Part shown: in pieces, positions 13,350 to 46,791 of the stretch | Position numbering within the stretch: the first letter of the stretch is position 1 | How the letters are laid out: every line of letters begins with the position of its first letter | Origin: Marsupella aquatica | Taxonomy: Eukaryota > Plantae > Marchantiophyta | DNA length: 64,000 bases | Direction: 5' to 3' | Assembly (NCBI GenBank): GCA_973895155.1 | Contig: OZ316891.1 | Location: forward strand, 32,189,208-32,253,207 | Program-made: the position numbers and the translations under genes | The notes under the pieces: model-generated | The model's database searches: none | What the model was told of the DNA's origin: nothing | What the model saw: only the letters and a program-made list of their open reading frames with translations

Positions 13350-13394
13350 ACTGAAAAAAATGGATTACAACCAAAGTCATGCAAATTTTGATTC

Positions 13395-22039: not shown

Positions 22040-22850
22040 TACGGGAGATGTGTGGGGAACTTGCGCTCAGCATCTTTGAGGAGGAGTTGGAGCAGGGACC
22101 CTTTTTCCAGAGGGAGATGTTGGAGAAGCGCCGATCAGAAGAAGCGGTGGCTTTGGAAAGAAGCAAGAAGGACGAGGTCATTTGTCGGCTTAGGGCAAGG
22201 GAAGCCAAGGTAGAAGACCTGAAGGCGGCCAAGAAAACCCAAGATGAACTGCGGATTAAGCGGCATGAGCTAAACATCATGCAGGGGCAATTGGATACCG
22301 CACAGTCTGATAATTGGATTATCGAGAATAAACTGACTCGGACCCAAGGAGAGTTGGCCGAAGCAATCAAGGAGAGGGAGAAGTGGAAGCGAGAGCTAAG
22401 GGACGCAAAGGAGGCCCACATAGCAGCCAACAACTGGGCCATGGCGGAGACCCAGAGAAGGGAGAGGGCGTTGAAGGGGGAGCTCAAGGATATCCTTGAG
22501 CAGAAGGAGGCCGAGTTAGGGAAATCCTATCAGACGATTATTATGCTGCAACAGGAGCTTGCATCCCTGACGGCCAGCTTCAAGGCTGACCTCCGTGAGA
22601 AAGATGACCAGCTCGACTTGACTTATGCCAAGATGAATAAAATGGAGTCTGAGGTCGTAACGGAGCTCAACAAGGAGCTAAGAGCAACCCAGGAGGAGAG
22701 GGCTACCTTAAAGAAGGAGTTGGAGGCAGCCCACAAGGAATTGGAGGAAGCCCAGAAGGAGCTGGAAGAGGCGCGCAAGGACCTGGACGAAGTGCAGGAG
22801 GAGTTGGAGGAAAGCACGTGGAAGATGGAGAACTTACAGCGGCGAGCCAA
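22040..22850 (+). repeat. 3' LTR of gypsy A, continuation (coiled-coil part of the LTR ORF)
   Basis: MCGELALSIFEEELEQGPFF...MENLQRRA matches ORF 30305-33991. Cut at 22850 by the family C LTR. Confidence 0.9.
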
Positions 22851-24348
22851 TGTCACGTCCCTAACCTGGGTCTTAAATCCAGTTTAGTTTCATGGCGCAA
22901 CCTCGACCACCAGTAGGGGTGAGGGTTTGGGCAAGGAGGTGTGTAGTGGCCCCGATTAGCCCTAAGTCGGGCTAAGTTGATATACTTACTGGTATAACAC
23001 TTACGCAATTTGTACTAGTCATAGGTATATTTATTTTCCATTGCTGGAATTTTCCCTCAATTAGTGACTCGGACTAACTCCCGGCTTGGGGCTTTTCAAG
23101 CCATCGACGTGACAGAACCTTGTGACATGCAATGGGTGGCAATCCCTACCATTAGTCCGCACCCGGTACGTCCCTTAAAATGGCGCCTTTGCCCAGACAA
23201 AGCATACACACAACACCAGTTACTTGCGGAAACATTAGAGGGAAAAGGCTACATTTACTCAGCGAAGCATCAGTTTACATGGTTGACTCGACTTCTAAGG
23301 GGGTCAGCAGGCCCAACGGCAGTCGATGCCCAGTCTCTACAAAGCCCCGCCTCACACTTGCCCAGCAAGCTCGACTCTGGCTCTCACTCCTTGGTGCGCT
23401 CTGACCCTACTCAGGCCGGGACTCCCCGTGTCTCGCCTTTTCTTCTGCTGAGATAACTAAGCCTTCTCCCCCTTCCATGGCGGAAGGGGAAGCCTAAATA
23501 CTACAGTTGCAAAAGGGAACCAGAGGATACTACCTTCCGGGATACTACCTACTGACTAACTACCCTCTGACTAACTGGCCGTGCTGTACTGACTGGTTGA
23601 CCATTGACGACAAGAGTGCTAACCGGAATGGCAGCAGCTAAGCCTACTGACAAAATCTAGTCCGTTGATGGACTCCATCCTACGCTGGCGGCTCCTAACT
23701 GATTTGGTCCTAATTCTTCCTACTACCACTAATCGGCGCCTAATGACAGCTATTCTGTCTTTACGCTTAACCAAAAGATGTCGCTGACTCAATTGCCTTG
23801 CGTGGCGCTTGCTTCCACCCTTTGCTAACCACCCCTTACGTGTGTGCTGTGGTTGGACCTGGGTTTGTCCCCCTGTCGGGGCAAGACCTCAAGCCGCCTT
23901 GATCAGAGGTGGGCCCAGGTTTTCCCCGCTGGAGGACAAGCAGGGCAATGCAATCCTGCAAGGCCTTGTTGTCCCGCACCGCCTCCTTCGCCTTGTTTGC
24001 AGCTTCATCGGCCTCTGTCTGGAGCCGCGCTACCTCCAGCTTGAGCTGGTTAATGGAGTTGCAATGGGTCTGGTCCTGTGCCAGCAATTTATCCCGTTCG
24101 GCGGAGAGACTAGCTACCTGCTGAGCTGCCTGTAGGAACTGTTTGTTGAGGTCGGTCAGGCTGGTAACCCGAGCCAAAGATTCTGAGCGCAATTGAAGCA
24201 CGGAATCGTCCAGCTTTTTGAGATCTACTTGCGCTCCGCTCAACTCCTGTGTTAGTCCGTCCCTCTGTTCGACGGTGCGGACTAACTCCTCACGATGGGT
24301 AGTGGCCTCCTCCTCGAGGTGCTCTACCAGCATTTGGAGGCGTTGTCC
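22851..24348 (-). repeat. Gypsy family C 3' LTR, distal part
   Basis: 22851 onward closely matches 63247-64000 (TGTCACGTCCCTAACCTGGG...). Contains coiled-coil ORF end 23836-24333. Confidence 0.9.
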
Positions 24349-26566
24349 TGAGGATAAGCAAAGAGGTGGGAAAAGGCCTCAAGGGACACGCAGGGTGTAT
24401 GGCTGCTTGAGATAGGAAACGCTTGCAAACAAGACAAAGTATCTACCCTAACCTTTCATCCACATCATCACAAGCAAGCAAGCATGCTTTCAAAACTCAA
24501 GCCATTTACATACTCATATCCAATCACAATCAAAATAACTAGTTCAAGCTTCCCAATGTAATCCTCACAAGTCTAAGCCCAACATTCAATTGGTCACCAT
24601 TCCTTTTCCAACACTTGATTGCACACAATCCCTTGCAACCCTCTAAGGTACACAAGTTCAAGCTTACATCAATGTGGTCAAGTTAAGGGTCACTCTTGGT
24701 TGTGGCTAAGACAAGTGGGACATCCAAAGGTATGCAAGGCATCTCTATGCACCATTCAAACATCCAACTGTTGAAACATGGAAAACTACTTTCGAAAAGT
24801 GACCTAGGGTTGGTCAACAAACTCCTTAACAAACATGGAATTGACCTTAGTCCCTTCCTCTAGTAGAACCACCAAGTACAATCCACAAACAACCCATTCC
24901 ATCAATCGAAAATGCCTTCACTCTTTACTCTTGCAACTTCCCTCATGCATAATAACTACTTTTGAAAGTACCTTCATCCAACCCATCTACTTTCAAAAAC
25001 ACCTTCAAGCTCACAACAACATTCAAAAATGGCATGAAGACATTCATTCTAACCATTCCATCACTCATAGCCAAAGCAAGGCATCAACACACATCTCAAA
25101 AATGAGGATACCTCTCCTCTAAATGCATAGCAAGAAGGCACATGTAGCATCATGGCCTCCAAGTAAAAACATGGGTCACAAGCAAGACCCTCCTAGCAAA
25201 AATGAATCATCACCAAGTCTAATCATCAACCAAGCATTCAAAATCCCTCCATAGCCTATCCAAGCTTCAAAACCCTAGTCTCCTTCTCTCATACTTCCTT
25301 CTATCAACCAAATCTACTTTCGAAGCTTCAAGTCAAGGAGTTTACAAGAGAGTAGGCCTTCTTAGTGAGCCATCTCTAATGCAAGACTCCCAAGCTTCAA
25401 CAAGATTAGGTCTCATCTCCTCTAAGCTTTCGAAAATCTCCTACAAGTCCATTCTCCTCAAAACTTGAAGCAACAAACCTACATTCGAGTATGCCTTCTT
25501 GTGGGCAATCTCTCATGCAAGCTCCTTATACTTCCTACTCACATCCTACCTCCTTCCTAAGGCTTTGAGTCAGCCTCTCCTACATTCGAAACCTCTCTCC
25601 AAATCCCTAGAAAAACCGTCACAAAACTCAATCTCTTCACATTCAAAGCTTCTACTCCATTTATCTCTTCACAAAATTGCCTCTACATCTCCTACCCTCA
25701 AAATCCTAAGGCCATGGCCAAGGAGGAGGGCTCCCCCTTCACTCATGCCTCATGCTCGAGCTCCCCTCAAGAGGTTCGCTCCTACAACTAAAAATGGGAC
25801 TTAACACTCCAAAACGGCAAAACGGCAGCACTTCAGCAGCATCTAACTTCCAAACCCTTGGCCAGTCGAACTTCCTCCTTTAGTACCCACGTGGGAAGGA
25901 CCAGGGCACCCACAAGCCCCTCCACTTATGGTTTTAATCCTCATTGAATCACAGCCCTCGATCTCACACCAATTAGATCAAACGGCCAAAAATGAGCCAA
26001 AAAACCCCTCCTTAGTAACTTGTAAACCAAATGAGCTTCGACCTTTTTGAAAAAGCCACGACCTCCACCAAGCCCTAACTCACATCTCCACCTTCAATCC
26101 AAACCATCCATTAACCAAAACCAAGATCCACCGTTGAAGTAGATACATTGAATCTGGTCCATTTAACACAAAAATCTGAATCTGGTCCAAATCTCACAAA
26201 ACTGATGCACTTGGACCAAACCCTCTTACATGCCTTGAACCTGGTCACCTCCTCCATGTATTCAATGAACCTGGTCACCATGTTGCCAAAACCCTAAATA
26301 CCTTGCTTGTTGAGCAAGTAACCTCCATTCCGCCAATCCACCAAATGATAACTTAATCGCTGGTCACAAATGAAAAACATACCCCACAATAGTAACAAGG
26401 GTGGGTAGGCTCAACCTCATCCCTACCTTGACCCTCATAACTCTACTTCCTCCTTCACCTTGGTCAAGTTAGCTCAAGTCAAGTCAACTTGCCCAAGTTA
26501 GAAGCAAAATTGGTTTCAACTTCCTTCACAAAACATGAGGATTCCTTCTTTAGGATGGAAACCTCA
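24349..26566. mobile_element. Probable 2.2-kb solo LTR
   Basis: TGAGG...CCTCA termini, non-coding. Flanks TGTCC/TGACA form a degenerate TSD. Excision plus one 5-bp flank restores the frame IGRCQRLQMLVEH. Confidence 0.7.
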
Positions 26567-28146
26567 TGACAGCGCCCGATCTCATTCCCCTTCGCCACGA
26601 GTTCTTCTTCCAAGCGGCTTACGATCCGTGGTTGGTGCCCTAACATGAAGAAGGCTGGTTGAAAGTACGCCGAGACTTGTTGTCCGATGTACGTTGCCAG
26701 CTCCCCAGACATAGTCTGGCTAAACTTCTGGACCAGGTCGTAGGCCATGGTCCCCGGGGCTACTTGGTAGTCCTCCATCCTCTCGGGTACCGGTGGTTCC
26801 TCGAGCGGGGCAACGATCTCCTCCGTAGTCTGTGCTGGGGAGGGGAAGGTTTCTTTAGGTGGTGGAGGGATTGGGGGTGGTTGCACCGCGGGTAGCGGAG
26901 GCTCAACAGAAGGGGGCGGCGGAATTTCAACAGGAGGAGGTGACGGAGTATTAGTCGGGGCTTCCGGCTTGGGGTTTGGCCGAGGGTTGGTAGTCCGCAC
27001 GCTCGGGGTTTCCTCCTCGAGGGCGGGGGTGACATTAGTCGGGGCTGAGGTGGCCATATTCTTTTCTCTGGCCTCCCAACGTGCCTTGTACCAGGCGAGG
27101 ATGATGGCGATATGACTTCCCAAGTAAGTCTTCCCTCCAATAGCCATACCACCCTGAGCCCGCTTTAGCTCCCTCGAGAATATATGGTAAAAGAATTAGG
27201 CCCAGTTCCGCCGTTTGTACTATTCCACCTGTACGATCGTGCAGAGGGAGATCTCGGATCGTGGCTCAATCATGTGTAGGGTAGTTCGTATGAAGTTAAG
27301 CCGCTCCATGCAGATTAAGTTGGTGCACGACCCCTGCTTGTATCCGTTGTCCGTCTTACCCTCAAGTTTGAAGTGCCGAGGTGTATACTCTTTATCCCGA
27401 ATTCAAAGTTCAACCGGCACTGGTCCGGTTGGCAGGCAGAAGATCTGTGCCAACCGATGCTCCGTGAGTGATAAGGTCTGCCCTAAAACTTTAGTGGTCG
27501 ATGCGTCGGTGTCAAAATTGGAGATGAACTCACAAATCTCCTTTGGCCCGGCGGCACACTGCCTCCATAGCAAGTGAGCAAACTGCTCCAACTGATGCTC
27601 CTTGAGATAGTCCGCGTGTTCCAGTTTCTTGATCGTGATCCACTCTACTTTGGGGACGCGGATTACCTGTAATAAGTTGGACTTTGGGTTATCCGGGGGC
27701 CGTCGGGTCTGGTTGGCCGGGGGGTTTGCCAGGGCAGATGCAGGCACGGCGTTGGTTCACATTGTCAATTTGGGGGCCGGCGCCGTCCTTGCCCACTTAC
27801 GAGAATGCTGCTAGAGTTGCGGACTAACTCGCTCGGAACCCGAAGAACACTCTGTGTTGATCACTGGTTGGACTTGGGACCGGTTTGGAGGTACGCTAGT
27901 GGTCATCGGCTGAGGTGCTGGTGGTGTTGGGGTAGCCATATCCCAGTCAAAGGCGTTAGAACTTTCCCCGAGGAAAGTAAGATTACGCGCCGCTTCCCGT
28001 TGTTTGCTGATGTCTTCTTGGCGCTTTTTGGCTGCGTTTTGCTGGTCTAGGTACCCCGGAATCTTGTCGAACTCCGCTTGAGTAAGCCACTGGTTGCCCT
28101 TCAGCCTAAAGAACTTTGCTGGGACTTCAAGAATTGCCTCTGCTAC
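26567..28146 (-). pseudogene. Family C LTR-borne ORF, middle part (decayed)
   Basis: LEQFAHLLW..ICEFISNFD..LSLTEHRLAQIFCLP aligns by eye with LEAFVRLPW..LLEFVGSWE..FYLTPKVIAEVFGLP, followed by a Pro-rich linker. Confidence 0.75.
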
Positions 28147-28483
28147 TGTGATGCCTAGCCAGGGATCACTAGCCCGGCTTACATGGTAAAGCAGGAGTGT
28201 ACCCTGGAAACACCTTAGTATAGGAACAAAAACAAGGAAAATATAAACAATTAAGGGTGACTATGGAACCAGGGCCGAGGCCAGAAGTAAGGACGCCGGG
28301 GGAGAGAACACGATTAGGGTTAGGGCCCGCTAAGCGTCGGCGGCTAGGGATGACCAACGGGAGGGAAGACCAAAGGAGGAGAGGGGTAAGGACCGCTCGC
28401 AAGGAATAGTGGCTCATTTGCAAGAACAAACTGAGCAGACAACTACGGGAGGCCAAATGCTGTCAATTGCTTAGGCAAGCACT
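28147..28483 (+). repeat. Truncated 5' end of a family A-like LTR
   Basis: Starts TGTGATGCCTAGCCAGG and is colinear with 7503-7839. Confidence 0.88.
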
Positions 28484-29314
28484 TCTAGACTTCTTGGAAT
28501 GTTTCTTCTTCTTATCTTTTTTCTTATGGGGTGATCCCTCCTCTGATGAGGAACTCTCAGACTTAAGCTGTTTCTTCCGGCTTGTGATATCTGCATTAAT
28601 GTATAATTGAATATCCTTAATTGCTTCGGCTAAAGTCTCCGGGTTCTCCTTCCTAATTGCAAAACTCATCTTCTGTGGCAAAGCATTCACCAACCATTGA
28701 AGTTGCATACCTTCAGATGCATTGGTCTTTGTACGTCTTACCAGTTTCTGAAAGCGTTGCAAGAACTTCCTGAAGGATTTGTTCTCCTTGAACCGAAGTT
28801 GTCCCAACTTCAGCACTGCTAGTTCTGAGGTTCCAATGGGTCGAAACTCCTTAACAAAGAGTGTTTTGAAGATATCCCAGATGGCTTGATCTTCCACATC
28901 TAATGCTCTGTACCAAGGCCTAGCCTCACCCTTGAACAGGCCGGGAAGAATCTGCATCTTGATGGCCGATTCTCCATTTGCTGCAGCGGTTCCCTCGAAA
29001 TCATCCAACCATTTGTCCGGATCCTCATCTCCTCTCCCATGAAATGCCTTGTAATGTATGCGCGACCGCTGGCTCAATCTGGTCCCTGGCCTCTCGTCTG
29101 GCCGTGCCTCTGGTTCCCCCATGTCGGTTGGAGACTCACTTCTCCTTACCGACTCTTCTTCTGGTATGTCTTCTTCGACGCCACTTCCAGTTTCGGAGCT
29201 ACCAGCTCTTTCTGCCCCTCTCAGTCGCTGTGTATCATGCCACCCGGTGAGCTGCTGCAGTCGAGCTCTCTCCCGTTGAATCACTCTTTCTTCCCTCGGC
29301 GTAAGGTCAGTCAT
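28480..29314 (-). pseudogene. Second, truncated copy of family B gag
   Basis: Near-identical to ~45888-46722 (FHGRGDEDPDKWLDDFE, LFKGEARPWY). Preceded by a PBS at 29361-29379. Confidence 0.92.
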
Positions 29315-29383
29315 TACCTATGCTTCCGTTCTAACTTCATATCTCACGGCTTAAGAAATGCCCCCTCCATCTAGCGCCAAAAA

Positions 29384-32300
29384 TGTGGTGCGTCCCATGG
29401 CTCCCTAAACCCAAGAAACCCCCCAGCTCAAGCCGATTCCCGCAGGTTTCGTGCTTGGCGAGGCCGTTTCCGCGGCTTAGCGGCATGGGACGCTGCTAAC
29501 CTTCTACTACTACTATTAACATTTTACACACATATACTGGACAGATCCTTCATCGGGTCATGAGATACGTAGCCGGCCTAATATAGGCCTTCCCCTGTCT
29601 TCCCCTGTCTTCCCCTCCGTCTTGTTAGGTATGTTTGGATTCCGCCGCCGGAATGATCCCCAATAGGCTTGGTTAAGCCGCTAAGACCTCTCTCAGCTCG
29701 ACACATCCAACTCTCACTCCCCTGCTTACTTTCCTTCCTTCTGTTGATGTGGGCACTCTTCACACAAGTTAATGCGACACACAAATAGCAAAATGACTCA
29801 TTCTGACTGAGTCATACCATGCACTTGCCATACAAACAGTACATCTCATACACAAGTTCTGCGAACTAAGCCGTGAGGCCAACTCTATTCAGCTCTTAGG
29901 CATGAGGAAACATGAATATACACAAGGGTCACTGTATGACTAACCGAGAGCTTCTCGTACTACTTGATCCCAGCCCGGCTGGTGCAAACTAAAAACTTGC
30001 TAAAGAAGAGGCCCTGAGCTCCCCGCTGCCCAGGTACTTATCCTGGTAGTGGATCCGCCATTCTTTGCATCGTAAGCCTAATCTACCTGACAGTAATCTA
30101 CTTGCCCGAATCTACCTATGTACAGCAAGGCAGGAGCACAAGTGTTGCTCCTACCAGTGGGACCGCAATCCCACTAAGCTAAGTGTCAGGGCCGCTCCTG
30201 GTTCTGATCCTAATCCTAAACGTGGAGATCCGCGCCCGCCCTGCCCACTCACGCCTCCTCCCTCCACGTCCGCCCTCCCTAAAAGGAACGGCGCCCTTGC
30301 ACCGTCACGACACCGGTGGTGGATCCTCAATGGACGCCCCCAACACTTCCTCCTCAGCCACTGCCGTTGGCCCGCCTACTGACAGATTACCTGCCCTTGA
30401 CCGAGTCAACTCTCCATCGGCCTGACTGGGTCCACCTTCGGCCTCAGCCTCGACACCGGCCTCGGCAATACCCACGGCTTCGGCCTCAGCCACTCCAACG
30501 GCTTCGGCTTCAGCCACTCCAACGGCTTCGGCTTCAGCCACTCCCTCGGCTTCAGCCTCCCCTTCCCCTAGGGTAGTTGGATCCTTAGCCGTGACCCTGT
30601 CTGGGGTCGGTGCTGGGTCTACCTCCTTGATCACCACGGCCTGTGAAGTCGTATTACTCCTTGACCCTGAAGGTGTCCGCTTCTTCTTCGTTGGTGGCTC
30701 GGCAGCTGGTCCCTTCCCCTTCCCACTTACTTCCGGCACTGGTGCAGGTGGCGTGGCTTGTCCTTCGGCAATTACCACCCCTGGTAACTGGTTTGTCCCA
30801 ACGGGAGATGGACCTGCTGCAGCTAAGCATTTAAATACTGCGGCTTGTTTCTTCAGCCGCTCTGTTTGGTTGTCGGCCCGCCGCTGTAGGTTCTCCATCT
30901 TCCTCGTGATTTCCTCCAACTCCTCTTGGGTTTCATCCAGGTCCTTACGTGCCCCCTCCAGCTCGTTTTTGGCCTCCTCCTGCTCCCTGTGGGCTTCCTC
31001 CAATTCCTTCTTCAAGGTAGCCCTCTCCTCCTGGGTTGCTCTTAGCTCCTTGTCGAGCTCTGCAATGATGACAGACTCCATCTGGTTCATCTTGGCGTAA
31101 GTCTGTTCGAGCATCTCGTCCTTCTCCCTTAGGTCGGCCTTGAAGCTGGCCGTCAGGGACGCAAGCTCCTGCTGCAGCGCCATAATCCCTTGATAGGATT
31201 TCCCTAACTCGACCTCCTTCTGCTCAAGGGCTCCGCGGATTTTCTCGAGCTCCCCTTTCAACGCCCATTCCTTTCTTTGGGTCTCCGCCATGGCCCGGCT
31301 GTTGGCTGTTATGTGGGCCTCCTCTGTATTCTTCAGCTCTTGCTTCCACTTCTCCCTCTCTTTGATCGTGTCGGCCAACTCTTCCTGCGTCTGAGTCAGT
31401 TTATCCTTGATATTCTGATTATCAGCCTGCGCGGCGTCCAACTGCCCCTGCATGATGTTCAGCTCATGTCGTTTAATCCGCAGTTCATCTTGGGCTTTCT
31501 TGGCCGCCCTTAGATCTTCAATCTCGGCTTCCATCCTCCTAAGCCGCTGAATGACCTCGTCCTTCTTGCTTCTCTCTAAAGCCACCGCTTCTTCTAATTG
31601 GTGCTTCTCCAACTGCTCCCTATGGAAAAAGGGTCCTACCTCCAACTCCTCTCCAAAGATGCCGAGCGCAAGTTCCCCACACATCTCACCATACTCCATG
31701 GCTCTATTCTTAGCGTAGGTGGAGTAAGTAGAAGTGATCGGCATCGCCCATCGTGGCCTCTGCTCCCAAGCCGTCCTACGGATCTCTTCAATCGTGGCTA
31801 GAGGTTTGCTTCCTTTTTCGGCTAGCCGCCTGATGTCCTCCGGCCAATCTCCCCCTGGTAAATCCTTTTCCTTAGCCAGGGCGGCCTCTTCCTCCTGCTT
31901 GATTCGCTCCTGAAATTCCTGCACCGTCTGTTTTATGCCGTCAAAGCTCGGGGGAGCAACATCTGGTGGGGGAGACTCAGGGCTACTCTGCTGGTTGGGG
32001 TCCCCTCGCACTACCCTTGGAAGTGTGGGGACAAACCGGCCACAGGTCCTTACTCCTGGAACGTGATGGTCCGACCCATAGCCGGAATTATCATGGCTGC
32101 AGTCCTCCACTGCCTCCTCTACCTCTTGGACGTCCGGCTTCTCCCTCTCCTCTTCGTCGGTAGGAGCTTCAGGCAATTCTGCCTCAGATTCGGAGCTTGA
32201 GGTTCCCACGTACATTCGAACACCTGGCTTGGATTCCGGCCTGATTCTCTCCTTGTCTCCAGCAAAGGGGTTTTCTCTTGTGAGCCGGTGTTGGCCTACC

Positions 32301-34067
32301 TCTGTAGTAGTGTCCTGCATTGTTGCCGTTGCCGTTGTTGTTGCCGATGCCGATTTCTTTTCTTTCTCCAGTAGTTTCAACAGACTCTGCATGCCTGGTT
32401 GCTGCATCGGCAAGTCTTCCTTCCTGGGCCTAAACACCTGCTCGATCGTAGGACTAACAGGTGGTTGAGGCTTCTCAGCCAACGGCCTCGGCGTTGGAGC
32501 TTCCTCGGGTGCCCTTACCTGCAGGGGAAGTACCGGGGCAAAAGTCTGACTTCTGGCATACCAGCACAACAGCGGCATGTGATAGCCAAGCCGCGATACG
32601 CTCCCCATGCCGATTACCTGCTGCTCCTCCTTTAAGATCTTCTTCAATTGGTTGAGGAGGTACCCGTTGTAGTCCCGGCTTGGGTCTGGCCTTTCTGCCA
32701 GATAGACCTGTGCCTTGCCGATCTCTGCCCTCGGCAAGTTACAATGCATGGTCACCCGCAAGAAGTCGATCATCTCTCCTATGTGCGGGTTGGTGCAGGT
32801 GTTCCGAAAGAAGCCATTCTTCGTTGATGGCCCGGGGAACGACCGGAACTCCTTGTCAGGCAAGGTCTTCCTGGTATCAACTTTGGTCTTATTGCCTATC
32901 GGCAGGCCAAACACTTCGGCAATTACCTTGGGAGTAAGATAGAAATCCTTCCCATATATCCTCGTGCAATTGGTCTCGGGTTCCCATGACCCCACGAATT
33001 CTAATAGGTCTGACTCCGGTACCTCCGGCTTCAGCCATGGTAATCTTACAAAGGCCTCCAAGCCGGATCCGGCCATGAAGCCTTGGTACTTCTTGGTCTG
33101 CATGGCCGTAAAGCATGCATCCTCCTCCCGTGCAAAATGTAGTTGCACCTCCACCGGTAGGGTTGCCGCCCAGCCCTTCCAGGTGTCATCCCTGGTTGGA
33201 ATGGCCTTGATGGGATCGACCTCCTCCTCTTCGGCTTCTCCCTGCCTCCTGCTATGCTGCTCGGCTGGCTTCTTTGGTGCCGCCGACCTCGTTCTTTTTG
33301 CCGGGGTGGCTTCATCGTTGACGGCTCCCTTCCTCTTCATCTCTGCTGCCGTGGAGGTTTCTCCTAGCACCGTTGCCTGGGTCCACCTTTCCGTGCTACC
33401 CTTTAATTCCCAGTGTATGTCGTTGCAGTTCTTGATGGCCTCTCGGATGCCGACGACGCTGTCTTTGCAAAACAGAAGATCGTCGAGTTGATTGGAAGTA
33501 GGCGTCCACAGGAACTCGTCCTTGATGAGTTCGCCTCCTAAGAAAGCCATCTTCTGCAGCTCCCACAATCGAGCGAGCTCCTGCCGTTCTCGAGCTGCCC
33601 TTTCTGACTCCTCGTCCTCGTAAGTCTTGATGTACTCAGTTGCCCGTTCGAACAGGCATCCCCAGAAATGTGCCGCTTGATTGACGTTGCTCATACCCTC
33701 CTTAGGTCGATCGTCGGTATCTACTCTCTCCCCGAGTGCTTGCCTAAGCAGCTGACAGTAGTTGGCCTCCCGTAGTCGTCTGCCTAGTTCGTGCTCGCAA
33801 ATGAGCCACCATCTCCTGCAAGCGCTCCTTACCCCTCTCCTCTGCCGGTCCTTCTTCCTGTTGATCCTTCCTAGCCGCCGACGCTTAACGCGCCCTAACC
33901 CTAATCGGGTTTTCACCCTTAGTCTTACCTCCGGCCTCGGCCCGGGTTCCATGGTTGCCCCTAATTGTTTATATTTTCCTTGTTTTGTCACTATACTAAG
34001 GTGCTCCTAGGGTGCCTTCCTGCTTTACCCACTTAACCGGCCGAGTGATTCCTGTCTAGGCATCACA
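29384..34067 (-). repeat. Family B 3' LTR, 4684 bp
   Basis: Direct repeat of 46792-51450, bounded by the PPT at 34068. Confidence 0.95.
30305..33991 (-). CDS. Intact LTR-encoded accessory protein (1215 aa from ATG 33952): basic N-terminus, globular domain, acidic/Pro linker, long coiled coil
   Basis: Uninterrupted ORF lying wholly inside the LTR. Homologous ORFs occur in the A and C LTRs. Confidence 0.88.
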   Translation of the reverse strand: MTKQGKYKQLGATMEPGPRPEVRLRVKTRLGLGRVKRRRLGRINRKKDRQRRGVRSACRRWWLICEHELGRRLREANYCQLLRQALGERVDTDDRPKEGMSNVNQAAHFWGCLFERATEYIKTYEDEESERAARERQELARLWELQKMAFLGGELIKDEFLWTPTSNQLDDLLFCKDSVVGIREAIKNCNDIHWELKGSTERWTQATVLGETSTAAEMKRKGAVNDEATPAKRTRSAAPKKPAEQHSRRQGEAEEEEVDPIKAIPTRDDTWKGWAATLPVEVQLHFAREEDACFTAMQTKKYQGFMAGSGLEAFVRLPWLKPEVPESDLLEFVGSWEPETNCTRIYGKDFYLTPKVIAEVFGLPIGNKTKVDTRKTLPDKEFRSFPGPSTKNGFFRNTCTNPHIGEMIDFLRVTMHCNLPRAEIGKAQVYLAERPDPSRDYNGYLLNQLKKILKEEQQVIGMGSVSRLGYHMPLLCWYARSQTFAPVLPLQVRAPEEAPTPRPLAEKPQPPVSPTIEQVFRPRKEDLPMQQPGMQSLLKLLEKEKKSASATTTATATMQDTTTEVGQHRLTRENPFAGDKERIRPESKPGVRMYVGTSSSESEAELPEAPTDEEEREKPDVQEVEEAVEDCSHDNSGYGSDHHVPGVRTCGRFVPTLPRVVRGDPNQQSSPESPPPDVAPPSFDGIKQTVQEFQERIKQEEEAALAKEKDLPGGDWPEDIRRLAEKGSKPLATIEEIRRTAWEQRPRWAMPITSTYSTYAKNRAMEYGEMCGELALGIFGEELEVGPFFHREQLEKHQLEEAVALERSKKDEVIQRLRRMEAEIEDLRAAKKAQDELRIKRHELNIMQGQLDAAQADNQNIKDKLTQTQEELADTIKEREKWKQELKNTEEAHITANSRAMAETQRKEWALKGELEKIRGALEQKEVELGKSYQGIMALQQELASLTASFKADLREKDEMLEQTYAKMNQMESVIIAELDKELRATQEERATLKKELEEAHREQEEAKNELEGARKDLDETQEELEEITRKMENLQRRADNQTERLKKQAAVFKCLAAAGPSPVGTNQLPGVVIAEGQATPPAPVPEVSGKGKGPAAEPPTKKKRTPSGSRSNTTSQAVVIKEVDPAPTPDRVTAKDPTTLGEGEAEAEGVAEAEAVGVAEAEAVGVAEAEAVGIAEAGVEAEAEGGPSQADGELTRSRAGNLSVGGPTAVAEEEVLGASIEDPPPVS

Positions 34068-34406
34068 TAGCTCCCCACTTAATTGTGAAGCGTCCTCGCG
34101 AACAACTTCATCTTCGTCCATATAGTATTTCTTGAGGCGGTCATAATTGTTGAGCATAGACGACGATCGCAACGGCAAGCCCATGAACCATCCAACGCAC
34201 AATAGTCGACACAAGAGATACGTGGTTCACCTCCTTGAGGCTACGTCCACGGGAACACACAAGAGAGCTTTACTGAACTCTAAGCCCGTCGGCTATACCG
34301 AGTCTCCACAGTGTAAGCTCTCCCTATCTCTCAAGTGGCTCCATAACAATGAGCCTTGGTTCTACCTCTCCAAGCACACATGCCTCTTATGATATAGTGT
34401 GCAACT

Positions 34407-34530
34407 TAGTTGTACCTAACCACATAGTTGTACCTAATCACGTAGTTGTACCTAACCACATAGTTGTACCTAATCACGTAGTTGTACCTAACCACGTAGT
34501 TGTACCAACCCACGTTGTTGTACCAACCAC
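34407..34530. repeat. 18-bp tandem repeat in the copia LTR (also at ~40481-40604)
   Basis: About 7 copies of TAGTTGTACCTAACCACR. Confidence 0.85.
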
Positions 34531-34759
34531 GTCATACCTAACCTAGACGTAAGAGTAAATACCCAACAATCTTCCCCTTGACTCTGGTCTAGGGGAGAGT
34601 AATACTGCCAATGTATATGATCCCTCAGCGGGAAGTTCTGGACAGAAATCAAACCGGTTTCCCTCTCTAACTAGAGCAAACCAGAACTAAGCCGTAGCCT
34701 AATACATAGGAATGAGGAAGAGCATATATCAGTAATTACAATGAATGTTTAAGAAAACT

Positions 34760-37700
34760 CTACTTGTGATGCAATTGCAAAACCTGCAATACGTCACGGT
34801 GTCTAGAGAAACTCTCCAAAGGAATCACTTTGGTAAATGCGTCAGCCGGGTTGAGTTTACCATCAATCTTGACTAGCTCAAACAAATTATCAGACACAGT
34901 CTGCCTGATAAAATAGTACCTGACGTCAATGTGCTTCACTTTGCTGTCCATCACCTGGTTCACAGCAAGGTGGAGCGCACTTTGACTATCACAATGGAGC
35001 TTCACATTCCCCTGTGGCAATCCCATTTCAGTGATAAGTCTATCCAACCAAATCGCTTCCTTTGCTGCTTCCGCAGCTGCAACATACTCCGCTTCTGTAG
35101 TAGACTGAGCAATACACTTCTGCAAAGTAGACCTCCAACTTATGCATCCACCGCCAAGTGTGAACACGTATCCTGTTGTTGATCTCCTTCGGTCCAAATC
35201 TTGTCCATAGTCAGAATCTACATAGCCAATCAATGATCTAGCATTCTTTGCATTCGCATCAAATAAAAGACCATGATCCACGGTACCCTTCAAGTACCTG
35301 ATAATCCACTTCACTGCTTCCCAGTGTACCTTCCCTGGATTCGACATGTACCTGCTCACCTTGCCCATAGCCATGGCAAGATCAGGTCTAGTGCAAGTCA
35401 TCAAATACATGAGACTCCCCACTGCCTTGTCATATGGAACCTTTGACATCAACCCCTTCTCTGTGTCATCCGTAGAACAGAACGCTGATGATAACTTGAA
35501 GTGTGGAGCCAACGGGGTACTTACTGGCTTGCTATTCTCCATGTTGAACCTTGCAATTACCTTCCTCGCATAACTGCTCTGCGTCAACCATAGCTTGCCA
35601 GCCTCCAAGTCCCTAGTGATCTTCATACCCAAAATCCTCTTAGCTGGCCCTAAGTCCTTCATCTTAAACTCTGCACTAAGCAGTGCCTTGAGCTTAACAA
35701 TCTCAGACCTATCCTTGGCTGCAATTAGCATGTCATCCACATAAAGTACTAAAACAATGAACCCAAAGACAACATTCTTCACCGGTTTCAAATACACACA
35801 AGGGTCAAATACACTTCTGTGAAAACCTTGTGACCGAATCCAATTGTCAAACCGCTTGTTCCACTGTCTTGGTGACTGCTTCAACCCATACAAGGATTTC
35901 AGCAATCTGCAAACCAATTCCTCCTATCCTCTCTTCACAAAACCTAGCGGTTGTCTCATGAAGATCACCTCTTCCAATGTGCCATAGAGGAAAGCTGTGA
36001 CAACATCCATCTGATCTAGGAGCAGACCAAACATTACAACAAGTACACACAATAGTCGTATTGTAGAGTACTTAGCAACTGGTGAGAAGACCTCATTGTA
36101 ATCCACACCTTTCTCTTGTGTGAATCCCTTTGCTACCAATCTAGCCTTGTAGACCTTCGATCCACCTCCTATGGAATTATCCTTCAGCTTGTAAATCCAC
36201 TTGCTGTCCACCACTTGCTGACCCTTAGGCAGCTTAACAAGCTCCCAAGTTTTGTTGTCCTTTAGTGACTGCATCTCCGTTTGCATTCCTGCAGTCCACT
36301 TCTGCTTCTCTTTTGAAGCACTTGCCTCATGAAATGAAGAAGGTTCTCCTTCTTCCAAAATTAACGCATCACCCTCATCATCAGTTGTAAAATCATCCTC
36401 TTGCAGTTGAGATGAATCAACCCACTGTCCATACCTTGATGGAGCGCGTACAGTGCGACCAGATGTTCTTCTAGCCGATGACTCCGGTTGATCTGCGTGT
36501 GCTGGTACAATTTGAAGCTCAACAGCATCCACTTGTTGCTCACCAGCATCAACAAACTCCTCTGGTTCCTCTGGCACAGGAACCAGCTCCATAATTGGAG
36601 CAACTCCTTCTCTCCGGTCATGCACCTCATAACCAATCTCCCCCTCAACGAGATCCGGGATAGGAGATTTTCCTTTGTCAGTACGGGAGATCTGAGTATT
36701 CTCCCCCTCCTTCAATAATCTGGATTCATTGAAGGAAACATCCCTACTGACAACGAGCTTACAGGCAATAGGATCCCATAGCCTATAGGCTTTCACACCA
36801 CTCTGGTACCCAAGAAAAACACATTTCCTGGAGGTAGGATCCAACTTGGTCCTATTCTGCTTTGGTGTGAGAGCATATGCATCACTTCCAAAAATTACCA
36901 AGCCATGATAGTCTGCTTGCCGCTTATAGCGCATCTCAAACGGCGTTTTGAAATTGATAGCACTAGAAGGAGAAAGATTTACCAAATAAGCTGCGGTATT
37001 GACAGCTTCTGCCCAAAATTCTTGTGGTAAACCTGATTGGCTCAACATACTCCGTGACCGCTCCAACAGTGTCCGATTGAGCCTCTCAGCGACACCATTC
37101 TGCTGCGGAGTATAAACTATGGTGAGATGGCGAGTTATCCCCTGTTCTGAACAGTACTCTTCAAATTCCATTGAAGTGTACTCCCCGCCGTTGTCTGACC
37201 TCAAACTCTTCACCCTTGTATCCAAACACTTGATCGTGTTTCCAGTCTGATTCTCCACCTGGGCCTTCCATTTCTTAAAAATGGACAAGACATCAGACTT
37301 ATGCGTCATGAAATAAATCCACACAAATCTTGAGTAATCATCAATAAATGATACATAGTACAACTTTCCAGAGTGTGAGGGAGTCGGGGATGGACCCCAC
37401 ACGTCACTATGTATGTACTCAAGAACCGCTTTGGAACGATGAGTTCCAACACCAAAAGCACGACGATGCTGCTTTCCAAGAATGCAATGCTCACAAAACT
37501 CTAATTTACAAGATTGCAAATCAGAAATGAGTCCATTCTTCCGTAAGATAGCCAAACCCTTCTCACTCATGTGGCCTAGCCGTGAATGCCACAGTTGAGT
37601 CATCTCCTCGTGAGACTTGGTTACATTGGCCTCTCCACATACAGTATTGCCCTGTAACACATACAAATTCTTTTGTCTACTCCCCTTCAAAATCACTGTC

Positions 37701-38032
37701 TCTCCCGACCTGACTTGAAGTTCACCATCAATAACGCTCCATTGATGACCATTTGAATCCAACACACCGAGTGAAATCAGATTCTTACGCATGCCAGGTA
37801 CATACCTGACTCCGGACACTGTGCGCACAGCGCCATCAAACATTTGAATCTTCACAAACCCAATTCCCTCAATTTGACAGGAGTGATCATTTCCCATCAG
37901 AACTGAACCGTTTGAAATAGAGTAAGAACTGAAAAACTCACGAATGTAACAAATATGAAAAGAGCAAGCACAATCAAGAATCCACACATCATCTGCTCTC
38001 CTAGATGACGTGCACAGGGCATACCCCCGGCT
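34760..38032 (-). CDS. Copia pol (protease, integrase, RT, RNase H) with an in-frame TAG at 35924-35926
   Basis: WILDCACSFHI, LRSDNGGEY, QQNGVAERLNRTL, YKARLVAKGF, LVLYVDDML, KHIDVRY. ORFs 35924-37987 and 34760-35917 are in the same frame. Confidence 0.95.
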
Positions 38033-39067
38033 TCATAAAACATACTCATCATTGAGTAAATCAGCTTCTCCATCAGCCCTAGCCACATTTGCCGATGAAG
38101 TTTCCGCTGCCTTTCCCTTACAGTCTCGCTTGAAGTGTCCAACTTGGTTGCACTTCCAACATGTCACCTGCCTCCTCTGAGGGGATTTACCCTTGGACTT
38201 AGATCTGGATTTAGATCTAAACTGGGTTCTACGGTCCCCAGTTGGTCGCTGCATACTCCTCCCACGGTTAACATTGAGGGCAGCACCAGATGATGAAGGC
38301 TGTGACGTGATGTGCATCTTCTGCTGAAGATCATCACTAAGCAGAGAACTTACCACGTCATTGTATGAAATGGTATCCCTATCACGATGCAACAACACTC
38401 GTGATAGGGACTGGTAAGATGGAGGCAATGAACTAAGAAGCTGCAGAGCCTTCGTCTCATCATTCAAAGTCTCCCCAAGGTTTTCCAAGTCAACGACCAT
38501 GTCGTTGAAAGCATCCACATGGTCTTGCAACTTCGTACCAGATTCCTTCATCCTGAAACTCATCAGTTTGTAGGAAGTGTAGAGCCGGTTCGACAACTCC
38601 TTGCGGTGATACTTGCTCTGCAATTCCGCAAATAAGGACATGCAATCCTTATGTGCACCCAACTGCTTGATGATGGGAGGCATGAGATAGAGTGTAACAC
38701 ACCACACTCCCTGCTCCTGCATGCGGTCCCATTGTTTCTCATCAACATCGTCTTCACGAGGGCTCAGCAGTTGGCCCATCCCTGACGCATAAAGCACTCC
38801 CTTCACCTGCTTCTCCCATAGCAAGTAGTCAGAGCGCCCATCATACTTTGTCACTTCATACTTGGGTCCCCCAAGCTTGAAAGTCCCCATCTTCTTCTTT
38901 ACCGTGAGCTCCGGTAGTAGTACTGCTTCCTCCACCACACGCCGCACCGGTGATGGTATCGGTGTCACGTGCTCTTCCTCCTGCTCCTCTCTCTGCCCCT
39001 GAAACCTCCGCGGTGACCCTCGTGCTTCAAGTTCCACGTCTTCGAAAAACTCCTCCGAATCACTCAT
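38033..39067 (-). CDS. Copia gag
   Basis: 344 aa with LLSSLPPSY and zinc knuckle CWKCNQVGHFKRDC. Confidence 0.93.
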   Translation of the reverse strand: MSDSEEFFEDVELEARGSPRRFQGQREEQEEEHVTPIPSPVRRVVEEAVLLPELTVKKKMGTFKLGGPKYEVTKYDGRSDYLLWEKQVKGVLYASGMGQLLSPREDDVDEKQWDRMQEQGVWCVTLYLMPPIIKQLGAHKDCMSLFAELQSKYHRKELSNRLYTSYKLMSFRMKESGTKLQDHVDAFNDMVVDLENLGETLNDETKALQLLSSLPPSYQSLSRVLLHRDRDTISYNDVVSSLLSDDLQQKMHITSQPSSSGAALNVNRGRSMQRPTGDRRTQFRSKSRSKSKGKSPQRRQVTCWKCNQVGHFKRDCKGKAAETSSANVARADGEADLLNDEYVL

Positions 39068-40642
39068 ATGAGAAAGTCACAAAAAATGTTGTTTTTCACA
39101 ACTTCTCAAAAAACTCGAAACTCAACACCGCCGCGTAGCCCACAAAGCTAGGAGTCCAATACTGAAAACCGAAATCAAAATCGAAATTTGACGGAAAAGT
39201 TATTCAAATTTCGGTCGAGGTGGGTAAAACCTTGGGAAACTCCCCCGTTTTGACCACCTCAGGGAATAACCGAAATACCAAGTACAACCCGTTGTCGGAA
39301 TTGCGATGTGATTGGTGCGCTGCATTGCCAACTTCAATGGCTACGACCTCGCCGAAAAATAACCAAAAAAGTTACCGTTCGGCGGATGAAATCTTTGTCG
39401 GACGGTCAAAAAATAGCTCTCTGGTTTTTTGGAATATTCTATGACCCTTGTACAGGCCCTGTGGGAATTTTGGAAGAACAATCGAGGGGCTGACATGTGT
39501 CCTCGAACCCCCAAAACCCCCTACCACCCTTCGTCGTCGAAATCTGGTCGCGCGCGCAGAAAATACACACGGCAGAATGTACCCCTCGACACCAAACGCA
39601 AGATATCTCACTCGGGTTTTGACGAAATCAAGATCCGATTTCAGATTTGGAAACTAGACTCCGAGGCGATGAAGATCGATATAAGAAGCACCCAAAACGA
39701 GGAAAGAACGAGGGAGAAAAAAATTGGTAAAGATGACAGATTTCTCTCAATTGCCATAGCCAATTTCGAATCAGTTTTTCAAAGAGAAAAAAATGGTACC
39801 TTGTCAACAACGAATGTTGATCAATTGCACTTGGTGCCGTCACCAAGTCCAACAAGGTAATTGATTTTGCTTAGCCTTCCTCTTTGCATCAAAGAGCCAA
39901 TCCCGGACTCAAAAACAATCGTCTTGCCTCAATCTCTCCGTTGAGTCAAAACACTTGACGCTTCTCCCTCCGAGTCGATTGCCAACTTTCTTCACAAAAT
40001 CCAGAACAACGAAAACTTAGATCTCTCTGCACCACGAGCTCCGTTCAACGATTTCTTCACACCGTTAGAAAGCTCTTGCCCTGATCTATCCGTTGAGCCC
40101 ATAAACTCCAAGTTCCATGCGATGGAACTCTGGATAATCCACCAACACTCAACGCTGGAAAAACCGTCATGAAATCCCGTCACGAACACACGTCACCTCC
40201 CAAGCATGCTCTGATACCAATTGTTGAGCATAGACGACGATCGCAACGGCAAGCCCATGAACCATCCAACGCACAATAGTCGACACAAGAGATACGTGGT
40301 TCACCTCCTTGAGGCTACGTCCACGGGAACACACAAGAGAGCTTTACTGAACTCTAAGCCCGTCGGCTATACCGAGTCTCCACAGTGTAAGCTCTCCCTA
40401 TCTCTCAAGTGGCTCCATAACAATGAGCCTTGGTTCTACCTCTCCAAGCACACATGCCTCTTATGATATAGTGTGCAACTTAGTTGTACCTAACCACATA
40501 GTTGTACCTAATCACGTAGTTGTACCTAACCACATAGTTGTACCTAATCACGTAGTTGTACCTAACCACGTAGTTGTACCAACCCACGTTGTTGTACCAA
40601 CCACGTCATACCTAACCTAGACGTAAGAGTAAATACCCAACA

Positions 40643-43600
40643 ATAATGGATGCGAACTGGATATACCTCTCCCGTAATGTTGGCCAATTGTACGGAGCCA
40701 TTGGGGAACATCATGGTTACTCTAAAGGGTCCTAACTAGCGAGTGTAAAGCTTTCCTGGAAATCTACTATACCTACTGTCATAAAGTAGCACAAGATCAC
40801 CGGTATGAATACTAACTACTTTTAACCTTTTATCATACTGCTGCTTCATGATATTCTGTCTATATTCTACTCTCTCGGCTGAAATCATTCTCGCTTCCTC
40901 TAAAGCTTCTAACCTATATTCTCGCTCCTTTAGGCTCTCCTCCGCTGAGGCTCTTTCCTCAATTGTAACTTGAAATGTCGGTATCTCAAGTTGCATGGGT
41001 ACCAGTGCTTCTTGTCCAAAGGTTAAGAAGAAGGGTGTATGACCGGTAGTGGATTTATAGGCAAGATTGTAAGCAAAAACAGCAGCAAACAATTTATCAT
41101 CCCAATCGAGTTTGTTCTGAGCTACTGTCTTGTTCAATATCTTTCCTATGATTCCGTTTGCTCGTTCTGTCAACCCGTTTGCCTTTGGATGGTAGGGAGT
41201 AGTAGGCCTATGTTTAACTAAATACTGCTCATTTAAACGACTAATTATATCATTCAAAAAATGGGTTCCTCTATCACTAACTAATTCTAGGGGTGCTCCA
41301 TACCTGGTGAAGATCTGCTCATACATGAATCTAGCCGTAGTAATTGCATCATCCTTCGTTGTTGGTCTGGCCTCTACCCATTTAGTTGCATAATCCGTAG
41401 CCAGGATTATGTACTTGTTCCGTCGAGGGTGGGTCAGTGGTTTCAGAGGTCCAATGTAATCAATACCCCACTTCTCGAATGGTGCCAGAGGTAGAATAGG
41501 GTGCAGTGGATGCCTGGTGGACGCCCTTGGTCCTCCCGCTCATTGACAAGGATCGCATTGTTTGATAAACTGATAGACATCTTTGTGCAAGGTGGGCCAC
41601 CAGTAACCGGCATTTAATATCTTCTTAGACGTGGTTACTGGGGCAAAATGTCCTCCGGCCTCCTCTCCATGCATGGCCCGTAGGACTCGTTTTACCTCTC
41701 TCTTTTCCAAACATCTTTGAATCGTGCCGTTGATTCCATGCTTGTGCAGTATGCCTTTAATGCACTGATACTGTCTGACCTTCCGCACAAAGACTGCGGC
41801 TTGCTCTCGGCTTAATCCTGGCTGTAATCTGGAAGTGCTGAGAAATTGTAAAATCTTAGGGTACCATGTATCAGCTATTTCCACAACGAATAGCTCCTCG
41901 TCAGGGAATCGATCATCGATGCAATCCGTGGCAGGTTTACCTGTGATCCTTGAAAAGAAGTCGGCATTGGCATGTAACTTTCCCGGCTTGATCCTCAGCT
42001 CATAGTCAAACTCCTGTAATAGCAAAATCCATCTTGCTACTCTGCCTGTAAGGTCCGGCTTATTGACTAGGTACTTCAAACTTTCATGATCAGTATGAAA
42101 GATTACCTTGTACCCTAGTAAATAATGCCTAAACTTTTTACAAGAATAAATGACTCCTAATGCTTCTCTTTCCGTGGTAGAGTAGTTCCGTTTGGCATCG
42201 GCAAGCTGACGGCTTGCGAAGTATATGGGATGGTCCCTTCCTTTCTCATCCAACTGACTTAGTACTGAGCCAATACAGAAGCCCGAGACATCTACAAAAA
42301 CATGAAAATCTTTGTTCCAGTCCGGTGCTATCATGACTGGGGCCTCTACTAACATCTGCTTCAATTCTACCACCGCTGTGACTCGTTCGGGTGTGGGTTC
42401 GAAGTCTGCTCCTGCCTTGAGCATATTGGTTAATGGTAAAGCCAGCTTGGCAAAATCCTTGATGAACCGGCGATAGTAACCAATGCATCCCAAGAAGGAT
42501 CTTACATCCTTTATGTTCTTAGGCTGCATGATATCTAGCCATACTGCTAGCTTACCTTTGTCAATCTCAATGCCCTTCCTTGATACCTTGTGACCTAGTA
42601 GCACCCCCTCGGTTACTGCAAAAAAACATTTATCTGGGTGTAACTTGAGACCCACCTCTCTACATCTCATGAAGGTTTTCCTGAGGTATTTAGCATGTTT
42701 CGATGCCTTCCCGAATACTGCAAAGTCATCAATGAAGATTTCCATGAACTTTCTCAAGTAATCATGAAAAATGTTCACCATTAATCGTTGGAACATAGCT
42801 GGTGCGTTGCAGAGTCCAAACGGCATACGATTGAAGACATAGATCCCCCATTCCGTGATGAAGGCCGTCTTGATCTGGTCTTCCTACCGAATCCTGATTT
42901 GGTTATAACCAGAGTATCCATCCATGAATGAATATAGTTCATGACTGGCTACCATGTCTAGTACCATATCAGTAAACGGTAAAGGAAAATGGTCTTTTAA
43001 TGTTGCTTCATTCAGCTTCCTGTAATCCTGACAAACCCGGATCTTGGGTTTACCATCGGGTCCAGCTTTCTTGGGAACTATCACAATTGGAGACACCCAG
43101 TCTGAATGCAGGACTGGAGTGATGAATCCAGCTTCCACTAGTTTGTCGATTTCCGTTTTGACCAGCAGGGAATACTTCGGGTTCATCCTTCGAATTGGTT
43201 GTCAAAATGATTTGGCTCCTAACATGAGATCAATTCGATGTTCCCCTAGTGTTGGATCTACTCCCTTTAGATCTTGGTGACTCCATGCAAACACATCCTG
43301 AAATTCAATCAATAAGTCACTGATCTCTTTCTCGAGCTCAGGTGCTAGGTTTCTCCCTAAGTTCAGTTCTCTTCCCTCTCCTAAGTCGAGCTTCCGATAT
43401 TGCCGTGCTTGGATCATATTAATCTGCTTCTTCAAATTCGGGTCCAGTTCGGCTTCCAGTCTCTCTAATCTCATACCTCCATAAACTGGGATCTCGGCTG
43501 GACTAGCCGAGTCGGTCCCTTCCTTGGTGTCCATAGATTGTCCCCTTACCGGTCTATTCGGTTTTGAATTAGTGGTCGGCTCCCCTTCCTGCCTTGGCTC

Positions 43601-46600: not shown

Positions 46601-46722
46601 TCGGAGCTACCAGCTCTTTCTGCCCCTCTCAGTCGCTGTGTATCATGCCACCCGGTGAGCTGCTGTAGTCAAGCTCTCTCCCGTTGAATCACTCTTTCTT
46701 CCCTCGGCGTAAGGTCAGTCAT
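40643..46722 (-). pseudogene. Family B gag-pol, broken by several stops
   Basis: gag 45502-46530, CYNCGQPGHFAREC, protease IDGGSG, RT WVSPIVIVPKK..DGYSGYNQI..FIDDF, RNase H, integrase. The last integrase codons resume at 34084-34147. Confidence 0.95.
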
Positions 46723-46768
46723 TACCTATGCTTCCGTTCTAACTTCATATCTCACGGCTTAAGAAATG

Positions 46769-46787: not shown

Positions 46788-46791
46788 AAAA

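Follow-up and report, generated by a model that had tools for sequence, protein, structure and literature searches.

Can a long terminal repeat (LTR) of a plant retrotransposon enclose a whole gene, and what might such a gene do for the element that carries it? We addressed this question in a 64,000-nucleotide stretch of DNA from the liverwort Marsupella aquatica (GenBank assembly GCA_973895155.1, contig OZ316891.1, positions 32,189,208 to 32,253,207), hereafter the window, which is a nest of plant transposons (Table 1). The element concerned is a Ty3/gypsy retrotransposon that we call B. A first-pass annotation of the DNA had described giant LTRs in this element, each holding an open reading frame (ORF) of ~1,200 codons. 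We found that the repeat is a genuine LTR, and that it almost certainly contains a gene under selection. Tentatively, we read B as an Athila-like element whose LTR gene encodes a VANC/PMD-type protein that binds the word WWGCCGA and protects the copies of its family from silencing.

The repeat is a Ty3/gypsy LTR

Comparison of the window with itself showed that 28480–34067 recurs at 45888–51450 with 99.07% identity. On the minus strand, B reads LTR2, primer site, gag–pol, a nested copia element, polypurine tract, LTR1, a second primer site and a piece of gag, and a Pfam scan of pol found the domain order reverse transcriptase, RNase H, integrase (RT–RH–INT). The LTR pair, 29384–34067 and 46792–51450, and its ORF lie where the first-pass annotation had placed them; an alignment of the two LTRs contains 24 substitutions and 25 gap columns. 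LTR1 starts with TG directly behind the polypurine tract and ends with CA ahead of a primer site that is presumably of the tRNA-Asn type. Because LTR1 is followed by another primer site and by 904 bp of gag, it is the shared LTR of a truncated tandem. The integrase frame continues across the polypurine tract to a stop at LTR nt 10–12, and B therefore has no 3′ internal region.

Four LTR heads in the window (those of LTR1 and LTR2, one of the related family A at 7503 and an A-type head at 28147) align from one TG, two of them preceded by a polypurine tract and two by unrelated flanks. Contigs assembled from reads break off exactly at 29384 with mixed flanks in all four read runs; the loose ends there numbered 16, 37, 4 and 2 contigs, with flank agreements of 0.40, 0.35, 0.54 and 0.58, respectively. 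Only three junctions between a polypurine tract and TG occur in the window, all immediately downstream of pol. A comparison of LTR1 with itself found no internal repeat that could serve as a short LTR and, together with the shared TG heads and the mixed flanks at 29384, this led us to reject a short LTR. The first-pass annotation had asked whether other members of the family might have short LTRs with the ORF in the internal region. Within the window this did not prove to be so: families A and C both carry the homologue in the LTR.

No single contig covers the whole LTR, so it is the two assembled copies that support its continuity. We saw no solo LTR complete with its flanks on either side (no genome-wide survey was made), and the solo LTRs that the first-pass annotation proposed as dispersed protein-coding units are thus putative. 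Among the 15 contig joints listed, of 469, none skipped the ORF. Summed contig depth over the ORF was 3.3–4.3 times that over gag in four of four runs. Contig depth is not equal to copy number, two runs invert when pol bins are the comparison, and we do not use these values as evidence.

The frame within the LTR is under purifying selection

The ORF begins at LTR nt 116, runs in the gag–pol sense and fills 77.9% of LTR1, in line with the ~115 bp and ~80% estimated earlier. The longest stop-free frame has 1,233 codons, against a mean of 188 and a maximum of 326 in 200 shuffles of the LTR. The ORF region is present in both LTRs, as had been proposed for each element, but only the copy in LTR1 is intact; that in LTR2 is disrupted by a frameshift behind codon 168, by stop codons at positions 1029 and 1104 and by the deletion of 24 bp.

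We compared the ORF of B with its family A homologue and obtained omega values (kappa set to 1 or estimated) of 0.09 or 0.14 for residues 251–437, 0.20 or 0.28 for residues 111–250 and 0.30 or 0.52 for a likely coiled coil at residues 756–1026; pol, the control, gave 0.11–0.18. Amino-acid changes were fewer than in neutral simulations for residues 87–250 (32 versus 59.8), residues 251–437 (16 versus 44.5) and the coiled coil (60 versus 80.4), and in each case none of 2,000 simulations was as low as observed. Codons 1–86 behaved neutrally (27 changes versus 28.0 simulated). The ORF core is thus under purifying selection of pol-like strength. The earlier view that codon differences are mostly synonymous and imply selection on the protein holds for the core, where omega is far from 1, and fails for codons 1–86. 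Likewise, the predicted gene of ~1,200 amino acids exists as an open frame of 1,215 codons, the first 86 of which bear no sign of selection. Ten of the 18 ORF variants among those listed in a read table were synonymous, which we do not count as evidence.

Because selection begins at codon 87, the working protein likely starts at Met87 (33694). Two features speak against this start: ATG1 is kept in four of four LTR heads, and the indels of family A in this part preserve the frame overall. The TATAAA at LTR nt 95 would put the transcription start just beyond ATG1. A GTAAG is conserved at LTR nt 140, and we considered a candidate intron in codons 10–67, a purine-rich stretch. The TATATTA noted near 29580 in the first-pass annotation was located at 29585–29579; when we looked for its conservation, the LTR tails of B and C aligned at the primer site only. 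It had been taken to suggest that the ORF lies wholly in U3, a placement that is putative given the second TATA-like word at LTR nt 95. In our working model there would be two promoters, one driving the ORF and one driving the genomic RNA. The limits of U3, R and U5 need RNA data (PMC3601003).

Two related families carry the homologue in the LTR

The family A homologue has itself decayed and is interrupted by stop codons at positions 128 and 232. In family C, pol extends to the polypurine tract and the LTR start at 57185. The end of a separate C LTR fragment is 94% identical to 63246–64000, the sequence just upstream of the C primer site. Since this fragment end matches and the C internal region has no room for the ORF, we assigned the C homologue to the LTR; a C LTR head joined to the 28146–22853 fragment was not found. 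The homologue is 28% identical to residues 292–502 of the B protein (E = 1e-16) and has the order core, proline-rich linker, helical part, insertion, coiled coil. The LTR position of the ORF is therefore common to two related families.

The C homologue is split at 24400–26470 by an inserted stretch of ~2.1 kb, and ~17 nt separate the C LTR end from its primer site (63234–63245), compared with 4 nt in B. A third, distant member of the core family lies in another unit at 53309–55681 on the plus strand (profile match 87.6%, E = 3.5e-6), flanked by clusters of TTACGAG, TTACTAG and TTACGGG at 52987–53113 and 55952–56000.

The core has a predicted VANC/PMD-like fold

A phmmer search returned 22 proteins, of which P0006 (bacterial Ig repeats) and P0020 were excluded from the alignment as likely spurious. 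Close and distant groups of homologues align with a probability of 97.5% (E = 5e-12, 206 columns). Those that could be named (three of ten and one of two of the proteins looked up) come from Calypogeia fissa, a liverwort. A word-based protein search with residues 240–480 found no match among proteins of 668–2,127 amino acids, a word-based profile search found nothing among longer proteins and two proteins at near lengths, and scans for homologues at related loci gave no confirmed locus. Searching the PDB by sequence produced coiled-coil noise only, a search of a viral fold library yielded a single weak row without a name (E = 0.02, TMq 0.33), and the Atlas held no usable match for residues 45–200.

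A model of residues 241–475 had a predicted local distance difference test (pLDDT) score of 84.6. The top Foldseek row for this model was DNA-bound VANC21 (probability 0.66, TMq 0.46; next row 0.15). In a wide structural alignment, VANC21 again came first, of 48,161 chains (Z 8.4, root-mean-square deviation (rmsd) 4.2, 209 residues aligned; next Z 2.1). When a liverwort homologue with 23% identity was modelled (pLDDT 84.2), VANC21 was the sole chain with a Z of at least 2 (Z 6.7, rmsd 4.7, 192 aligned). Language-model leads for the core, from the Atlas, were Transposase_32 (0.89) and ATHILA (0.87). VANC and PMD are reported to be structural homologues (PMC13547354; bioRxiv 2024.09.27.615353), and gypsy elements encode PMD-A (PMC5418596). 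On these models, the core probably belongs to the VANC/PMD/ATHILA fold superfamily. The coiled coil is suggested by a weak Pfam coiled-coil match (E = 0.0047) and by a run without proline at residues 801–1000. The highest 19-residue hydropathy window of the protein is 1.11 and no membrane segment was found in it; an env-like membrane protein was rejected on these grounds.

A short word is enriched in element B and differs in family C

VANC proteins bind short motifs that are enriched in their own transposons (PMC5735166). In an unbiased ranking of 6-mers in the LTR ORF, TGCCGA came first (z 7.0 versus a null maximum of 5.9 in 100 synonymous shuffles), and among 5-mers in the internal ORFs GCCGA came first (z 5.4 versus a null maximum of 4.7, also from synonymous shuffles). 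A or T occupied position −2 in 51 of 64 GCCGA sites and position −1 in 47 of 64. We then compared the resulting motif, WWGCCGA, with two nulls of 400 shuffles each, a plain synonymous shuffle and one that keeps the dinucleotides at codon junctions. Four of the 39 sites fall in a 24-bp tandem repeat (30436–30559) that is part of the acidic tail of the ORF and differs by one unit between the LTRs; this repeat was left out of the shuffles. Two disjoint parts of B contained 14 sites (3.2 and 4.7 expected under the two nulls) and 20 sites (5.3 and 9.0 expected); in each part and under each null, none of the 400 shuffles reached the observed count. The motif is sparse in RT–RH–INT (3 in 2,557 nt) compared with the gag–linker portion (17 in 3,499 nt).

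Across elements, we counted 39 WWGCCGA sites in 10.9 kb of B, 3 in 10.0 kb of C and 3 in 6.1 kb of copia. A different word, CGGACNA, has 24 sites in C (22 without duplicated LTR sequence) and 2 in B; in C it was found 7 times against 1.6 and 3.0 expected and 7 times against 2.1 and 2.8 expected, counts reached by 0–1 of 400 shuffles. Motif enrichment thus differs between families B and C. Ten B sites could be aligned to A, where 3 were intact, 6 were changed by C-to-T at the CG only and 1 was changed otherwise, so the word was likely common to A and B and decayed after insertion.

The protein may counter silencing of its family

An Athila-type 3′ accessory gene would have become enclosed in the LTR once plus-strand priming lay directly behind pol. 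A promoter within the first 130 nt of the LTR would drive its ORF, and translation would begin at Met87. The core would then bind the family word, the coiled coil would oligomerise the protein along the element, and the bound protein would oppose host silencing of the family copies. We lean, slightly, towards the view that the protein binds the family motif; that it acts against silencing is a more tentative proposal.

Several observations weigh against this proposal. None of the 27 alignment members has a Pfam match in the core, and both named Atlas scores are below 0.9. The Foldseek E value for VANC21 was 0.28, with 7–10% sequence identity, and VANC21 was missing from the top Foldseek rows for the second model. 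The Z scores of 6.7–8.4 fall in the middling range of the tool, and the alignments behind the two models have rows in common. The fold alone shows no function, since there are PMD-fold proteins that promote silencing as well (PMC5418596). As for the word, WWGCCGA was first noticed post hoc, and a first pooled Markov test found no 7-mer significant after correction (best 0.56); its three top 7-mers have GCCGA in common. An unrelated DNA transposon has 8 sites in 13.1 kb, compared with 3.6 and 5.1 expected (6 and 31 of 400 shuffles). The word of family C is weaker (z 6.0, level with the null maximum; z 4.5, close to the mean of the null maxima) and was also chosen post hoc. In A, CGs inside the motif have been preserved no better than CGs elsewhere (7 of 19 versus 80 of 152), and the covariation of protein and motif is based on two families. 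VANC motifs form tandem arrays in non-coding DNA (PMC5735166); the non-coding parts of the B LTR had no clear motif array, with 1 WWGCCGA in 1,294 nt, and the only 8-mer to emerge there came from a 10-bp tandem of 3 copies and was reached by 8 of 200 shuffles.

The same fold and motif evidence applies to a family-specific DNA-binding protein that reads the motif but serves to transactivate, or to organise the cDNA or integration complex, and not to antagonise silencing. In contrast to VANC arrays, the sites are scattered over coding sequence and occur in either orientation; acidic stretches are present in the protein, and retroviral regulatory roles are a standing hypothesis for plant extra ORFs (PMC7264820). 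However, we consider this unlikely: the nearest solved fold is that of an anti-silencing factor, WWGCCGA is nearly absent from the promoter-like LTR head (0 in 373 nt) and tail (1 in 921 nt), and each motif contains a CG in elements whose observed/expected CpG ratio is 0.62–0.83.

Protein and word might also have separate causes, with an Athila-type accessory gene, env-like or encoding a structural oligomer, moved into the LTR and the motif stemming from a host transcription-factor site or from the mutational history of the family. The ATHILA and Transposase_32 leads fit such a gene, as does the modelling of ATHILA-domain proteins as coiled-coil pentamers (PMC13547354), and the link between protein and motif is one that we infer for a motif chosen post hoc. 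This explanation seems improbable to us, since the hydropathy maximum leaves no env-like membrane anchor, the genome holds two families whose words differ reciprocally, a pattern for which a single host factor is a poor explanation, and the enrichment survives the null that keeps codon-junction dinucleotides. It is very improbable that the 4.7-kb repeat is not an LTR and that an internal ORF beside a short true LTR was doubled by tandem duplication or misassembly: the duplication does reach 904 bp into gag, no target-site duplication can be checked and no one contig spans the LTR, but the common TG of the four heads with their two kinds of flank, the mixed flanks at the LTR end in every run, the three junctions right behind pol and the lack of internal room in family C all oppose it. 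An antagonist of silencing that recognises WWGCCGA remains the explanation we favour.

Comparison with known systems

Judged by its features, B fits the Athila lineage best among those in a published lineage table. In that table, Athila has no extra RNase H or chromodomain and has Asp or Asn primer sites (Asn 12%), Phygy has a Trp primer, and Selgy has an Ala primer and no extra ORFs (PMC6317226). The seven of seven pol-region frames of B gave no Pfam match to an extra RNase H or chromodomain, and its integrase ends at the LTR. The Tat clades (TatI–III, Ogre, Retand) were rejected because no extra archaeal-type RNase H was found in those frames. Resemblance to Athila lies in the gag–RT–RH–INT order, the large size, the sense extra ORF downstream of pol and the Atlas lead. 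Unlike in Athila, pol of B continues past the polypurine tract and enters the LTR, and the extra ORF follows further on, within the repeat, with no Pfam match; the ORF had no hidden Markov model match to PF03078 (ATHILA ORF-1).

The protein resembles VANC of VANDAL elements, which are Mutator-like (PMC5735166; PDB 9LNJ and 9LNK), in its predicted core fold, its coiled coil, its variable regions with tandem peptide repeats and a family-specific short motif that differs between related families. It differs in that B is a class I element, identity is 7–10% and the motif is dispersed in coding DNA instead of non-coding tandem arrays; VANC is described as dicot-specific, whereas the named homologues of the B protein are from a liverwort. 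DUF1985 membership by sequence and a Mutator-like host element were rejected, as B is a retrotransposon and its protein has no Pfam match. PMD-A of Ogre/gypsy elements and PMD-C of MAIN and MAIL1 belong to the reported VANC fold superfamily, which includes retrotransposon-encoded members (PMC5418596; bioRxiv 2024.09.27.615353). In contrast to B, nearly all PMD ORFs of Ogre are listed as antisense 3′ ORFs, and these proteins are described from angiosperms; the B ORF has no PF10536 match.

Among retroviruses, sag of mouse mammary tumour virus (MMTV) and nef of HIV-1 are unrelated proteins, the U3 location of the B ORF is putative, and the B ORF is much longer than either gene. Like it, sag and nef have coding frames in the LTR, downstream of the last internal gene and at both ends; sag is a retroviral precedent for a whole ORF within the LTR, and MMTV has extra U3 promoters (PMC12789967). 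Ogre LTRs, at 1.9–6.5 kb, span the size found here, but the extra ORFs of Ogre are described as internal, and Ogre also differs in its additional RNase H and its primer site for tRNA-Arg (PMC6431247). In reviews, the extra ORFs of plant elements are likewise located in the internal region (PMC7264820; PMC11963269; PMC6431247). REXdb records 5′ and 3′ sense ORFs in 23% and 26% of TatII and 33% and 18% of Tekay elements, figures that may hide LTR-located ORFs (PMC6317226). A literature search, in the passages it covered, found no plant LTR holding such a gene and no description of a VANC-fold retrotransposon protein; the VANC21 structure paper, Sasaki 2022 and Steinbauerova 2011 fell outside its scope. 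Passages of PMC12885004, PMC12859917 and PMC13317346 likewise contained nothing on either.

Other features of the window

The left end of the B tandem, where a target-site duplication was sought, is lost at the 28480 junction. The empty site of the nested copia element appears as a contig joint between 34142 and 40643 in three of four runs. Each copia LTR carries an 18-bp tandem array (34408–34505 and 40482–40579) with six copies of AGTTGTAC. Like the arrays of VANC motifs, it is tandem and non-coding, and AGTTGTAC is the same 8-mer as the VANC6 AC-type motif (PMC5735166), a match made post hoc and possibly due to chance. A copia-like pol fragment at 1–2095 is 72% identical to the nested element. 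Within the family A LTR, ~8950–22040 is a 13-kb DNA-transposon-like insertion. It has inverted ends, repeats of 22 bp near its termini and of 27 bp in its interior, and ORFs that encode DUF7869, methylase-like and NIF phosphatase-like proteins; nt 1428–2380 of the A LTR are missing where it sits.

Table 1. Coordinates of features in the 64,000-nucleotide window (position 1 is its first nucleotide)
Feature	Position	Strand	Remarks
Family A 3′ LTR head	7503..8933	+	84% identical; behind pol and polypurine tract; ORF homologue aa 1–437
Family A LTR, continued	22045..22852	+	ORF homologue aa 756–1027
Family C LTR fragment	22853..28146	-	Decayed homologue; ~2.1 kb inserted; no polypurine tract–TG junction inside
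A-type LTR head	28147..28483	+	Preceded by unrelated flank
Second primer site and gag start	28480..29383	-	904 bp, 99.8% identical to 45888–46791; cut at 4-bp microhomology
Primer binding site behind LTR1	29364..29379	-	Read from sequence
LTR1 of element B	29384..34067	-	4,684 bp, TG...CA; 3′ LTR of full unit and 5′ LTR of truncated second unit
WWGCCGA motif	29384..46791	.	39 sites in one LTR and B internal region, nested copia left out; 25 sense, 14 antisense
TATATTA	29579..29585	-	202 nt ahead of LTR end; candidate promoter of genomic RNA
Open frame in LTR1	30305..33952	-	1,215 codons
Likely translated part	30305..33694	-	From Met87, 1,129 aa
Likely coiled coil	30875..31687	-	~aa 756–1026; weaker purifying selection
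Conserved core domain	32528..33232	-	aa 241–475; predicted VANC/PMD-like fold
TATAAA	33968..33973	-	LTR nt 95; conserved in 4/4 LTR heads; candidate ORF promoter (putative function)
Polypurine tract	34068..34080	-	Integrase frame runs across it, ends at LTR nt 10–12
Nested Ty1/copia element	34145..40644	-	Identical 426-bp LTRs; absent from other copies
B internal region	40645..46791	-	Primer site, gag, RT, RNase H, integrase; broken by stops; no extra ORF
LTR2 (5′ LTR) of B	46792..51450	-	4,659 bp; holds broken ORF copy
Family C internal region	57186..63245	-	~65% identical to B in pol; primer site at 63221

Significance

In its fullest form, which we regard as doubtful, the proposal is of VANC-type self-recognition in an early-diverging land plant: the LTR of each family would be a self-contained cassette of promoter, gene and poly(A) site, its protein would bind a family-private word written in the element's own codons, and solo LTRs could reawaken the family in trans. 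Because it lies in the LTR, the gene would survive when an element recombines to a solo LTR, the opposite of the common view in which such recombination disarms the element. With a predicted VANC-like protein, a candidate target word and a sister family that offers a different pair of protein and word, a direct cross-binding test can be made. The liverwort homologues bear on whether the PMD/VANC fold originated in hosts or in retrotransposons. If the proposal is true, it would give a function to the long-unexplained extra ORFs of the ATHILA/Transposase_32 type and would date the use of the VANC/PMD fold in transposon anti-silencing to long before the dicots.

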